From: Escherichia phage SP27
Length of the DNA: 64,000 nt
Sequence record: LC494302.1
Strand: one strand, 5' to 3'
Position 1 is the first letter of the stretch. The number at the start of each line of letters is the position of its first letter. A model generated the notes under the pieces. It was not told the DNA's origin. It did no database searches and saw only the letters and a list, made by a program, of their open reading frames with translations. This document shows positions 42,709 through 59,662 of the stretch, piece after piece. The position numbers were made by a program, and so were the translations under genes.

Positions 42709-43473
<765 letters not shown>

Positions 43474-55404: not shown

Positions 55405-55902
55405 ATGACAACTGTTTATATTGATAAACGATTAAATTTATTGATTACCGATTCTAGAGTTACGTCAACTATACCACGAAACTTATTTGGTTTTTTCCCA
55501 CTAAGACCAAAATATCAATATGGAGTTGTTAATCAAAAAACTTTATATGTACATGACCGTTTATTCAGTGCTAGTGGGGTAGTAAGTGAAATTGATAAAG
55601 TACTGGATTGGTTAATTAATAAAGTACCAGTTATACCTGACAGAAAGTTAAGTTGCCATTGTGTGCTTCTTTCTAAAGATTATGTTATTCATATGATTTT
55701 AACTAAAGGAAAGTTTATTAAAAAACTTGAATATCTACATGAAGACTACACTTTCTTTATGGGAAGTGGTGGAGAATACATGCTAGATGCTGCTATTCAT
55801 GAAGAACATACAACTTTATATGATAAAGTGTTTAGTACTTTCATGGATGTGCACAACCATGATTGCTTCACAGATGATAATATTAATGTATATCGATTTT
55901 GA
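55405..55902 (+). CDS. hypothetical protein
   Basis: 165 aa ORF. Confidence 0.45.
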   Translation: MTTVYIDKRLNLLITDSRVTSTIPRNLFGFFPLRPKYQYGVVNQKTLYVHDRLFSASGVVSEIDKVLDWLINKVPVIPDRKLSCHCVLLSKDYVIHMILTKGKFIKKLEYLHEDYTFFMGSGGEYMLDAAIHEEHTTLYDKVFSTFMDVHNHDCFTDDNINVYRF

Positions 55903-55923: not shown

Positions 55924-56889
55924 GTGAAAAAGCTTGATTTAAATACAATTGCCGAAGAAGTTCTGGATGAATGTTTTGCTAATGAAGAAGTCAACACACT
56001 AGAAGCCTTAGATTTCGTTGAAGATAAAGATGATAATGAAGGTAAAGTACAAAGCAGTTTCAAATATAATATTACACTTAAGCGACCACCAAATGTTTCC
56101 AATGAAGATCTAATTCGTGATATTCAAGCTGGTATCAATGTAAAGAAAAACACTGAACTGTTAGTTCGTTACAATTATGGACTGATTATTGATGTAGCAA
56201 GTAAATGTACTTGTTATATCCCATTTGAAGATAAGATTTCATATGGTGTTGAGGGGTTCATGAGAGCACTAAAAACCTTTGATCTTAATAAGAATGTTAA
56301 GTTCATTACCTATGCTTCTTCTAGTATTTACATGACAGTCTATAACGAAAGTTCTGACGCTAACTATATGGTACACTTCCCACGTTATATGAGTGTTCAT
56401 AAGATCAAAGTAAAAAGATTCTGCCAGGAATATATGCGTAAACATGGTGTTCGCCCAACACCTGAAATAATCTCAGAGGGTACTGGGATTGAGATTCAGC
56501 ATGTTAATAATTGTTTATTATTTCAAAGCGAATACACTTCACTGGATGCACCATTAGACGGTGTTACAGATGGTACATTAGGTGACATTATTCATTCACC
56601 TGCTTCTGATTTTAACCTCAATGTTGATAGTATCCGTGCACCTTTACGTTATGCTATCAATGAACTGACTAACGAATTGAGTACTAAAGAACGTGAGATT
56701 ATCCAGCGTGTTCATGGTCTAGGTGAATATGAACCTGAAACGCTTCGTGAGATTGCTGATAATGGTTTTGTTGATGATAATGGAAAATATGTTAAATCCC
56801 GTTCATCAATACACCGAAAGTACAGTGAAGCTATGCAAAAGCTTAAGAAGTTAGTACTTGCAAAAGGGTACGAATACGAAGATTTCTAA
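55924..56889 (+). CDS. sigma-70 family RNA polymerase sigma factor
   Basis: GTG start after AGGAGA RBS; region-2-like LLVRYNYGLIIDVASK...GVEGFMRALKTFD...FITYASSSIY and region-4-like HTH LSTKEREIIQRVHGLGEYEPETLREIADNGF...IHRKYSEAMQKLKKL. Confidence 0.6.
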   Translation: MKKLDLNTIAEEVLDECFANEEVNTLEALDFVEDKDDNEGKVQSSFKYNITLKRPPNVSNEDLIRDIQAGINVKKNTELLVRYNYGLIIDVASKCTCYIPFEDKISYGVEGFMRALKTFDLNKNVKFITYASSSIYMTVYNESSDANYMVHFPRYMSVHKIKVKRFCQEYMRKHGVRPTPEIISEGTGIEIQHVNNCLLFQSEYTSLDAPLDGVTDGTLGDIIHSPASDFNLNVDSIRAPLRYAINELTNELSTKEREIIQRVHGLGEYEPETLREIADNGFVDDNGKYVKSRSSIHRKYSEAMQKLKKLVLAKGYEYEDF

Positions 56890-56896
56890 AGAACAA

Positions 56897-56923
56897 GGGT
56901 TGGCTTATGCCAACCTTTTTTTT
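56897..56923 (+). terminator. rho-independent terminator after the sigma factor gene
   Basis: gggttggc ttat gccaacc plus tttttttt. Confidence 0.65.
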
Positions 56924-56943
56924 ATGGGATGAAGTAAAAGTTT

Positions 56944-56952
56944 GTGATATAA
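56944..56952 (+). promoter_or_regulatory. extended -10 promoter element reading into an ORF-free segment
   Basis: tgtgatataat immediately after terminator 56897-56923. Confidence 0.35.
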
Positions 56953-57447
56953 TTATCTTGTACAATTCTGTTGGCATGATATTCATGTACCTGATCCACT
57001 CGAAAACGTAGAGGGCAGTTGAGCAGTCCGACAGTGCGAACAGCAAAAGAAACCCGTTAGATGTGGGCATAGTTTGAACCCCTCACGGCAATGCGGCTGT
57101 ATAAAGAACCACGTTAGGATAGCTGGTGGTTCCTTGATAGACATATAAGGATAACACCTTACGAATTATCTAAGGGAGAGTTATCGAATTTTGTACAGGA
57201 AAGTTGCGTCCAAAATTTGAGTACTCACATTAAGTATTTGATTGCATAGATACTTAATGAAGATACACTATGTTTAAAAGTGTAGACCGTCATATGAAAC
57301 TGAAGTAGAGAGAAACAGGATGACCCGCTTTCGCACTCGTTATGAGTAATCTTCAATGCAATAGCTCTGATACCATCAGCGTCAAATTTCCCTCCTTGTG
57401 GGGGGAAGAAAAATCCCTTCCTCAAATCCCGTCAATATTAAAAGTCC

Positions 57448-57476
57448 TTGACAGTTATTAATCATTCGCGTAGAAT
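57448..57476 (+). promoter_or_regulatory. sigma70-like promoter (TTGACA-N17-TAGAAT)
   Basis: ttgacagttattaatcattcgcgtagaat. Confidence 0.45.
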
Positions 57477-57540
57477 ACGTAGTATTAGAAGCGAACAGAC
57501 ATCTCGAAGAGATGGATGATTAACCATTAAGGAATATCAA

Positions 57541-57750
57541 ATGAATTCAGTAATCTTTTTAGTAGTCGCTTTCTCTGTTAATTCCGGTGTACAAATAACC
57601 CCAATGAATTCCATGAATCAATGCATAGCAGTACGTGATAGTACATACGAACAAGTAAACAAAGATATTTGGATTACAGTTAGTAAAGAACAAATGTGGT
57701 GTTACAATAGTAATACTAACACAAAGCTTATTGTAGGACAAACTCAATGA
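57541..57750 (+). CDS. small secreted/membrane protein
   Basis: N-terminal MNSVIFLVVAFSVNSG signal-like. Confidence 0.4.
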   Translation: MNSVIFLVVAFSVNSGVQITPMNSMNQCIAVRDSTYEQVNKDIWITVSKEQMWCYNSNTNTKLIVGQTQ

Positions 57751-57977
57751 GTTATGGCGTTCGTTTTGAGATTCGTTCTATTGTCATCAATGCAGAGAAA
57801 CAAGTATCGTTGGATGGTGATATACGTGAAATTTATCTATCATGTATCCGTGCGAAATCTGAAGCAGATGCCTTAGTACAAATGTATAGTTTTAACTTTT
57901 CAAATGGATTCTATTTGGTACGAGTTATTGAAGTGAAAAAAGTACTTATTGGTTGTAGCATAGAAGGATTAATGTAA
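57747..57977 (+). CDS. hypothetical protein
   Basis: 76 aa ORF. Confidence 0.4.
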   Translation: MSYGVRFEIRSIVINAEKQVSLDGDIREIYLSCIRAKSEADALVQMYSFNFSNGFYLVRVIEVKKVLIGCSIEGLM

Positions 57978-57978
57978 A

Positions 57979-58767
57979 ATGAGCACTATAGATGAACTGA
58001 TTCGACGGAATTCAAAATATTACCAACCATCAGAAATTGTAGGTAACATTACCAAATCAGAGTTTGGTCCAAATACTCGAAAACTCATTCATGTAATGTC
58101 ACGTGATGGCTTTAAATGTGATTGTTGCGGTGAATCTAATGTAGTATTCACTTTACACAAGCACAGTACTAAAGATCGTTATAAATTCAGACCTTATGTA
58201 CTTAAAGGGAAACGCCTTGTACGCATGACGTTAGACCATAATGTACTGGACTGTCTTCAGGGCGGTAATGATAAAGAGAACATGACTGCACTGTGTGAAG
58301 ATTGTAACGCATTACGCCAGCATAAGTTTGCTGAATACAGTGAGTTTAAACACTGGTATCATAACGCGGATCGTTCAATCGAGCCTGACGTTAACTACTG
58401 CTTCATTGAGTACATTAAGAATGCCAAAGATACATACATTCTTAAATCAATGTCACCTATTACCGTGTTTCCTGAGAACCTATTCACTACATTAAAGAAT
58501 AGTTTTATTGTAGGTGATATTGATGCATTCAAGTATTTTGACAAAGGTGCAAAACATTTTGAAATTCAATGTCTTAGTACTGCACTATGTGAACTCATTA
58601 AAATTTACATAAAAGAGTATTTGGGTATTGACAATGTACGTGTACCAGAGTATACTTTTTCTATTGAATTCGATTGTGAATCAATCAAAGAGTTTGGAAT
58701 TCTTTTCAATAAACAAATAGAACTTGCAATTCAAAACGAAATCAAGTACTATACTACTAACATTTAA
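57979..58767 (+). CDS. HNH endonuclease (free-standing, homing-endonuclease-like)
   Basis: CDCCGES...HKH...RMTLDHNVLDCLQGGNDKENMTALCEDCNALRQHKF: CxxC / DH-N / CxxC spacing typical of the HNH beta-beta-alpha-metal fold. Confidence 0.55.
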   Translation: MSTIDELIRRNSKYYQPSEIVGNITKSEFGPNTRKLIHVMSRDGFKCDCCGESNVVFTLHKHSTKDRYKFRPYVLKGKRLVRMTLDHNVLDCLQGGNDKENMTALCEDCNALRQHKFAEYSEFKHWYHNADRSIEPDVNYCFIEYIKNAKDTYILKSMSPITVFPENLFTTLKNSFIVGDIDAFKYFDKGAKHFEIQCLSTALCELIKIYIKEYLGIDNVRVPEYTFSIEFDCESIKEFGILFNKQIELAIQNEIKYYTTNI

Positions 58768-59272: not shown

Positions 59273-59300
59273 TTGACATAAGATATCAGTACTGTATAAT
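59273..59300 (+). promoter_or_regulatory. sigma70-like promoter with CAGTACTG spacer element
   Basis: ttgacataagatatcagtactgtataat. Confidence 0.55.
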
Positions 59301-59345
59301 GTTTATATCAAACGAAATCCACTTTAACAAATGATAGGAAATATT

Positions 59346-59624
59346 ATGTCTTTTTCTAAAGAAGAACGTGACCTTATTAAAAAAGCAATTTGGTTTTATG
59401 CTAATGAAGGGAAGTGCGATGAAGAAAAAGCACGTGAACTGTGTAATATTCTTGAGAAGAAACAAGAACTGAAAGTGTATCGTATCCGTGATTTGGATGA
59501 AGGGGATCGTATTGTCCTAGCTGAAACAAAAGAAGAAGCAGAACAAATCTTCACTGATAAAAACGAAAATCCACATTGGATGGAAGAAGTCTGTGATGTT
59601 AAAAAAGGTACTTATATCGATTGA
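59346..59624 (+). CDS. hypothetical protein
   Basis: TAGGAAA RBS then ATG 59346; downstream of promoter 59273-59300. Confidence 0.45.
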   Translation: MSFSKEERDLIKKAIWFYANEGKCDEEKARELCNILEKKQELKVYRIRDLDEGDRIVLAETKEEAEQIFTDKNENPHWMEEVCDVKKGTYID

Positions 59625-59662
59625 CAGTACTGAATAATAGCAGTATTATGTTTTATATAAAA

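Follow-up and report, generated by a model that had tools for sequence, protein, structure and literature searches.

What is encoded by the open reading frame (ORF) at positions 57979-58767 of a 64,000-nucleotide (nt) stretch of Escherichia phage SP27 (sequence record LC494302.1; hereafter “the window”, i.e. the whole stretch that has been analysed), and how did this gene come to occupy its place? A previous reading of the letters alone (the sequence-only reading) had proposed a free-standing HNH endonuclease of a T4-like phage, recently acquired as a mobile cassette. The phage itself is of another kind: the 6 kb around the ORF match jumbo phages with genomes of 348-384 kb, among them E9.1, JP4, PBECO4 and 121Q, at 97-99.5% identity, and by this identity the source phage is an Asteriusvirus, a 121Q/PBECO4-like jumbo coliphage, and not a T4-like phage. 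The encoded protein is 98.5% identical to 121Q gp170, and 100% identical to its counterparts in E9.1 and JP4.

As judged from its sequence and predicted structure, the ORF encodes an intact ββα-Me endonuclease, in which an N-terminal nuclease module, for which cleavage is predicted, is followed by a separate C-terminal helical module. The check with hidden Markov models that the sequence-only reading had suggested for the HNH domain has given a divided result: both Pfam models remain below their cut-offs (HNH, PF01844, 15.7 bits against 21.4; HNH_5, PF14279, 15.1 bits against 27.5), and the assignment has been made in spite of these sub-threshold scores because three other approaches, all of them clear, agree with each other. 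Firstly, the PHROG 35175, named ‘HNH endonuclease’, is matched at E=6.6e-188, and there are matches to 13 more HNH PHROGs. Secondly, the profile of the family, searched against the PDB, finds the HNH motif of Cas9 (E=1.9e-4) and the Gme HNH nickase (E=1.1e-3), with the pattern DH...N...CxxCN aligned; this profile was built from a 39-row alignment, which is closely similar to the 38-member alignment from which the invariant columns have been read. Thirdly, the predicted structure contains the ββα-metal fold, with its strands at residues 55-106 and its helix at residues 107-113. Across the 38 aligned family members, residues C47, C50, H87, G95, N101, C106 and C109 are invariant, and residues T84, D86 and N110 are nearly so; by its motif, the protein is a DH...N...CxxCN (‘HNN’) variant of the HNH nucleases with a predicted Cys4 zinc site, belonging to a divergent subfamily.

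The family to which the protein belongs is small and phage-specific, and its members are located at different loci across related genera; an exhaustive protein search has collected 95 cluster representatives, compared to only 5 found by a word-indexed search. The architecture of two domains also occurs in homologues that are 34-38% identical to the window protein. A structural search with the C-terminal module (residues ~181-262) has returned no informative neighbour, and we infer that this module is a DNA-recognition domain. With regard to its setting, the gene is free-standing, i.e. a separate ORF between the homologues of 121Q gp169 and gp171; no Rfam match to a group I or group II intron occurs around it, intein signatures not having been searched for, and PADLOC gives no match for the HNH protein and the four neighbouring ORFs. 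Its start codon is located 1 nt past the stop of the upstream 76-amino-acid (aa) ORF and is preceded by an AAGGA Shine-Dalgarno-like motif; the gene is the third of a gp168-gp169-HNH unit, situated behind the σ70-type promoter-like site at 57448. A free-standing HNH endonuclease at this position, as had been claimed, is thus upheld by the intact, separate ORF and by the support from PHROG, profile, fold and invariant residues. The gene in itself is routine, having already been annotated as ‘HNH endonuclease’ in 121Q (gp170), PBECO4 and others.

The comparison of this locus among 35 related records, by tblastn, has found the HNH protein at an identity of at least 79% in 30 of them, while the nuclease is absent in the other five: JNE01, Turkey5, EC22.5-2 and ECO103 4-12-1, together with A4, where the nuclease domain is gone. 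EC22.5-2 and ECO103 4-12-1 are both 351,992 base pairs (bp) long, have the same alignment coordinates at the locus and may be one and the same phage. In the first four records, the homology with the window ends at 57719 and restarts at 58759-58764, the 1.04 kb that hold gp169 and the HNH gene being swapped for 86-94 bp according to the junction alignments; direct repeats of at least 18 nt that would flank the gp169-HNH cassette have not been found. The empty site that a synteny comparison had been expected to reveal therefore exists in these phages, and gene order does differ among the relatives. In phage A4, the homology continues to 57989 and restarts at 58523, with gp169 retained: the 87-aa protein A4_184 (contig L002, 5585-5848) corresponds to an HNH gene of the fEgEco12 type from which codons 5-181 have been deleted exactly and in frame; it has kept the first four residues and the C-terminal module and has lost the entire nuclease domain. 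Between this remnant and the C-terminus of fEgEco12, there are 13 synonymous and 10 non-synonymous changes, the ratio of the non-synonymous to the synonymous rate (dN/dS) being 0.16; judging from the intact A4 remnant, the C-terminal module may be able to function without the nuclease.

Whether these alleles reflect gain or loss of the gene can be approached through a distant relative and through the fillers of the empty sites. A distant metagenomic contig (L019) carries an HNH homologue, 59% identical to the window protein, at the corresponding slot, with the gp171 homologue as its next gene; it lies downstream of gp168 and of a structured RNA that is described further below, the intervening genes differ and gp169 is absent. 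The distance of this contig is reflected in its other proteins, which are 82% (gp174), 63% (σ factor) and 51% (HslV-like) identical to those of the window. The filler of EC22.5-2 aligns with window positions 58628-58671, i.e. with a stretch inside the HNH gene, at a score of 41, compared to 19±2.4 for shuffled sequences (0 of 500); the fillers of JNE01 and Turkey5 align at the same place more weakly, at a score of 23 (42 of 500 shuffles). The peptide encoded by this stretch, G(I/V)(D/K)NAR.P.Y.F (codons 217-231), is conserved in the homologues that are 34-38% identical to the window protein, and the stretch is for this reason a sequence of the gene family and not a captured intergenic piece. 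The filled slot of L019, the 45-nt relic in the HNH-less alleles and the in-frame deletion of A4 are the reasons why the presence/absence polymorphism is best read as repeated loss; the simplest history suggested by the sequence comparisons is that the common ancestor already carried the HNH gene, which has long resided in the slot just before gp171. One lineage would have deleted the nuclease domain only, while another would have deleted gp169 together with the HNH gene, sparing the 45-nt promoter-like piece, which may drive gp171 in the HNH-less alleles.

The empty allele has also moved between phages. Outside the interval from 57542 to ~58835, the identity of EC22.5-2 with the window and with 121Q is 99-100%; inside it, the gp168 gene of EC22.5-2 (57542-57741) is 95-99% like that of JNE01 and 76-83% like that of the window and 121Q, and past the empty site, up to ~58835, its similarity to JNE01 and to the window and 121Q is about equal. 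On its left, this patch begins where a block shared by all lineages at 93-100% identity (57046-57541) comes to an end. This pattern indicates that the HNH-less allele has been exchanged by homologous recombination between the divergent JNE01-like and 121Q-like backbones, in either direction.

The HNH gene is itself composite. In the comparison of the window with the fEgEco12 clade, codons 1-175 have a synonymous rate (dS) of 0.31 and a non-synonymous rate (dN) of 0.023, giving a dN/dS of 0.075 that indicates purifying selection on the core, while codons 176 to the end have a dS of 1.24 and a dN of 0.43; the dS of the C-terminal module is 1.1-1.24, against 0.31 in the nuclease core. The C-terminal module so comprises at least two old alleles that are joined to a conserved nuclease core, and a modular C-terminus of this type fits a target-recognition domain. 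The values have to be seen against their surroundings: the block of gp169 and the HNH core (dS 0.31-0.36) contrasts with its immediate neighbours (0.61-1.24), but it is located within a generally mosaic region, where the dS of neighbouring genes between the same lineages ranges from 0.03 to 2.2.

With a probability of roughly 60%, we interpret the gene as that of a predicted site-specific nuclease, either of the homing type or serving interference, which is intact and resident here and has been lost in some relatives. By analogy with known systems, relatives that co-infect the cell with a different allele of the gene, or with none, would offer a DNA site on which the C-terminal module docks; the HNH core would then nick or cut the DNA of the co-infecting relative, and through recombinational repair or exclusion the locus with the HNH gene would be inherited preferentially, together with its flanks, so that the phage's own HNH locus would be over-represented in the progeny. 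Both marker exclusion, which the sequence-only reading had assumed, and homing activity are what we infer from such analogy.

Stand-alone nuclease genes of T4-like phages provide a close parallel in gene organisation. The MobA-E (HNH) and Seg (GIY-YIG) genes are located between conserved genes, and are present or absent among close relatives; their enzymes combine a nuclease module with a separate C-terminal module, and the outcome of their action is marker exclusion or co-conversion of the flanks. The likeness to our locus is one of organisation and not of sequence comparison; the host genome here is an Asteriusvirus, and the polymorphism here consists of losses, with no gain event seen. Members of the same family are found in phages of the GAP32/CBB/BF type (CBB_535 and CBB_528; PHROGs 25420 and 25983), with 28-42% identity over the nuclease half and a common signature, CxxC...DH...N...CxxCN...FAEYxEFKxWY; PHROG 25420 matches the window protein at E=2.8e-31. 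In CBB, a copy of the window's structured RNA and the phage σ-factor gene precede these genes by a few kb, but the genes of this type occupy other exact slots and have other C-terminal regions than the window gene. The description of the CBB homologues as free-standing homing endonucleases of the HNH type is one by annotation alone (PMC5259590), and the Asteriusvirus papers that we consulted contain no analysis of the HNH locus. The functional model that we favour resembles that of a jumbo-phage enzyme which, in the account given by a review (Birkholz 2024, via PMC13282480), is an intron-borne homing endonuclease that mediates competition between co-infecting jumbo phages by nicking the competitor's homologous sequence; as described there, that enzyme of a PhiKZ-like phage is located in an intron and targets a polymerase gene, in contrast to the window gene, which is free-standing and belongs to an unrelated phage lineage.

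Two further comparisons have led to the rejection of the corresponding candidates. Compared to Cas9 and IscB, whose HNH domains are structural neighbours, the window protein has only 262 aa, without a RuvC, REC or PI domain, and an RNA-guided nuclease that would use the adjacent RNA has been rejected, given that the HNH-less phages keep the RNA and that the copies of the RNA examined outside this syntenic locus have no HNH gene of the family in the DNA analysed with them. The HK97 gp74-like, terminase-associated HNH protein is likewise a small phage HNH protein; an assignment to this group has been rejected, as the neighbours here are a σ factor, an HslV-like ORF and small ORFs that follow σ70-type promoter-like sites, and not terminase or portal genes.

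Several observations weigh against a homing-type or interference nuclease. The sole transfer that is visible has moved the HNH-less allele, and not the HNH gene, between the JNE01-like and the 121Q-like backbones, and no clear gain event of the gene has been found among the relatives compared. The mosaic within the HNH gene is no specific proof of homing, because the entire region is a patchwork, and the Pfam HNH models stay below their curated cut-offs. The strong purifying selection and the long residence would be expected of a domesticated function as much as of an active selfish element.

The most serious rival is accordingly formulated around domestication, although we consider it distinctly less probable: the nuclease would no longer be mobile, or would never have been, and would degrade host DNA, process recombination or replication intermediates, or exclude unrelated competitors, being dispensable in some backgrounds. 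The long residence at one locus and the low dN/dS of the core speak for such a function, as do the position of the gene behind a σ70-type promoter-like site and near the phage σ-factor gene, the failure to detect gain events, and the fact that it is the HNH-less allele that is common to divergent backbones. Three features count in the opposite direction: at least three independent lineages in nature do without the gene, the partial loss in A4 included; the hypervariable, modular C-terminal domain is typical of the target-recognition modules of homing enzymes; and the family is small, phage-specific and scattered over different loci in related genera.

It is improbable that the gene is a recently acquired mobile HNH cassette at a fresh insertion site, with the small ORFs and the ORF-free segment as a part or a scar of the acquisition, which had been the proposal of the sequence-only reading. 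The sharp breakpoints of presence and absence among phages with 97% identical flanks, and the fact that gp169 goes along with the HNH gene, are what such an event would leave; it is contradicted by the occupied slot of the distant relative L019, by the relic of internal HNH coding sequence in the empty alleles, and by the nature of A4 as a deletion derivative. Furthermore, no island of guanine-cytosine (GC) content is confined to the gene (0.30-0.39 across its span, compared to 0.24-0.41 in the rest of the 52-64 kb that were profiled). The position beside small ORFs and an ORF-free segment had been described correctly, but as a sign of acquisition it does not hold, the ORF-free segment being the most conserved sequence of the region and an RNA gene. 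Least probable by far is a catalytically dead remnant with a DNA-binding or regulatory role only: A4 does retain the C-terminal module alone, apparently under purifying selection, but the window copy has all the conserved metal-binding and catalytic residues, and the core is the best conserved part of the protein.

Table 1. Positions, in window coordinates, of the HNH gene, its parts, its allelic breakpoints and its neighbours.
Feature	Position	Strand	Basis or remark
HNH endonuclease ORF, 262 aa, ATG to TAA	57979-58767	+	121Q gp170 orthologue
Predicted ββα-Me nuclease core with Cys4 zinc site, residues ~40-120 (C47, C50, D86-H87, N101, C106, C109, N110)	58096-58338	+	
C-terminal helical module, residues ~181-262	58519-58764	+	At least two very divergent allelic types
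Segment with gp169 and HNH, missing in JNE01, Turkey5, EC22.5-2/ECO103 4-12-1	57720-58763	+	blastn breakpoints
HNH codons 5-181, missing in phage A4	57991-58521	+	blastn breakpoints and codon alignment MSTI/NAFKH (slash marks the junction)
Stretch of HNH codons 217-231 matched by the 45-nt relic in HNH-less alleles	58628-58671	+	Local alignment
Promoter-like TTGACA-17-TATACT inside HNH codons 217-231	58628-58656	+	Promoter scan
gp168 homologue, 69 aa, first of the operon	57541-57750	+	ORF listing and PHROG
gp169 homologue, 76 aa, PHROG 28392	57747-57977	+	Start overlaps the stop of the gp168 homologue
gp171 homologue, 60 aa	58783-58965	+	Conserved right-hand neighbour; anchors the HNH slot in all relatives
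σ70-type promoter-like TTGACA-17-TAGAAT	57448-57476	+	Promoter scan; precedes gp168-gp169-HNH
Structured RNA gene, ~485 nt	~56960-57445	+	5' end inferred from promoter, 3' end from conservation limit
Extended -10 promoter-like site TGATATAAT for the RNA gene	56945-56953	+	Read from sequence
Intrinsic terminator-like hairpin and U-run	56895-56918	+	Ends the σ-factor gene
σ70-family factor gene	55924-56889	+	σ70 regions 2, 3 and 4 matched

The segment without ORFs, 650 bp in length (56890-57540), is located upstream of the gp168-gp169-HNH unit, and the surrounding small ORFs are without an assigned function. We have concluded from the comparison of its homologues that this segment holds a structured RNA of ~485 nt. 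Between lineages with 55-80% identity in the flanks, the identity of the RNA block reaches 93-100%, and the promoter-like site that follows it (57448-57476) is kept together with it in all Asteriusvirus relatives. A 616-nt query has located 253 places in 61 jumbo-phage records, with 2-5 listed per record, mostly 3-5; the 64-kb window contains one copy only. The records include Asteriusvirus, BF, pEa_SNUABM, fHe-Yen9, CBB, GAP32, Munch/7t3 and XbC2/XaC1, and the copies are mostly unannotated; further copies have been retrieved from viral and metagenomic contigs by collection scans. When 185,579 genomes of bacteria and archaea were scanned with a pattern for the RNA, one match resulted (L082, 5389-5925), in a contig of Serratia sp. 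2723 (NZ_JBNDIN010000009.1, 198,618 bp), which may be a fragment of a jumbo-phage genome in the assembly; in the scans made, the RNA is found almost only in jumbo phages of the 121Q/GAP32/CBB/BF/Munch type. An extended -10 promoter-like motif of the type TGnTA(T/C)AAT is present within ~110 nt upstream in 28 of the 29 copies displayed, the exception being L018, and in many copies the TTGAC(A/T)-17-TAnAAT site of the next unit comes after the RNA.

The evidence for a conserved structure comes from covariation. RNAalifold, applied to 29 copies, predicts 58 pairs, of which 29 show compensatory changes. In a set of 34 non-redundant copies, 61 pairs in 14 helices, two of the helices being pseudoknots (57241-46 with 57357-62, and 57289-93 with 57320-24), are paired in 98.8% of the cases, and 40 of the pairs have changed on both sides; in the controls, pairing amounts to 79% in 500 shuffles, none of which attains the observed values, and sliding one strand by 1-3 columns gives 38-47%, a contrast that is inflated insofar as the tested structure was partly derived from the same MAFFT alignment and the sequences are interrelated. 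The G-U pairs of the RNA are formed on the + strand, and no ORF in the segment is conserved among the copies. The z-score of the minimum free energy of the single sequence is an unremarkable -1.4, from which it follows that thermodynamic stability alone would not have flagged this RNA.

A search of Rfam 15 has returned no plausible match, either for the window copy at E<=10 or for nine other copies at E<=5. In its size, its long-range helices, its pseudoknots and its invariant joining regions, the RNA is comparable to GOLLD, ROOL, HEARO/ωRNA, RNase P RNA and the group I introns (~450-550 nt), and its size and architecture would be in the range of large ribozymes or scaffolds of ribonucleoproteins; it is unlike these large RNAs in that it matches no Rfam 15 model, is not located inside a gene and is multicopy. 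A resemblance to the CR-V region of RNase P and to group I P3-P4, noted by eye only, is without support from the models and is not claimed. None of the jumbo-phage papers that we consulted mentions the RNA; this search did not extend to PMC10690425, which lists over 10,000 candidates for structured RNAs of viruses and could include this one. The chances appear to us evenly balanced that the RNA is an undescribed class of large RNA, with 3-5 paralogous copies per genome, and that the block of RNA and promoter also serves as a homology arm for the exchange of the alleles with and without the HNH gene. The RNA is not tied to the HNH gene, since the HNH-less phages retain it.

A few observations on the remaining neighbourhood can be added. 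The σ-factor protein (55924-56889) is strongly mosaic among the relatives: that of the window is 99% identical to that of 121Q, 74% to that of A4 and 58-59% to those of fEgEco12 and JNE01, while the latter two share 87% identity. A 165-aa ORF (55405-55902) that immediately precedes the σ-factor gene has a weak match to a PHROG of the HslV-family peptidases (E=9e-6), and its fEgEco12 counterpart is annotated as ‘ATP-dependent protease subunit HslV’. On the other side of the HNH gene, there is a second cassette that is present in some phages and absent in others: a 321-bp segment (59322-59642) with the gp173 homologue (ORF 59331-59624), missing in fEgEco12 and Turkey5, lies between two promoter-like sequences that resemble each other (TTGACA-16-TATAAT at 59273-59300, and ~59623-59650), which suggests a deletion or an insertion through recombination between the promoter repeats; the A4 homologue of gp173 is annotated as a σ70-family protein. 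Farther away, a cluster of six transfer RNA (tRNA) genes at 40.2-44.6 kb includes an ARAGORN call of a tRNA-Ser (43128-43219) with the anticodon ACT, i.e. with an A at position 34, which is unusual for a tRNA of the bacterial type.

The locus is of value as a natural series of alleles at one place, comprising the intact gene, the deletion of the nuclease domain, the full deletion with a 45-nt piece, and a recombinant with the deletion allele. As isolates with the HNH gene (121Q, E9.1) and without it (EC22.5-2) have flanks that are ~97% identical, competition by homing or interference is directly testable. The more valuable by-product of the analysis is the neighbouring large, multicopy and pseudoknotted RNA, which, if new, would be a candidate for a class of functional RNA in jumbo phages.

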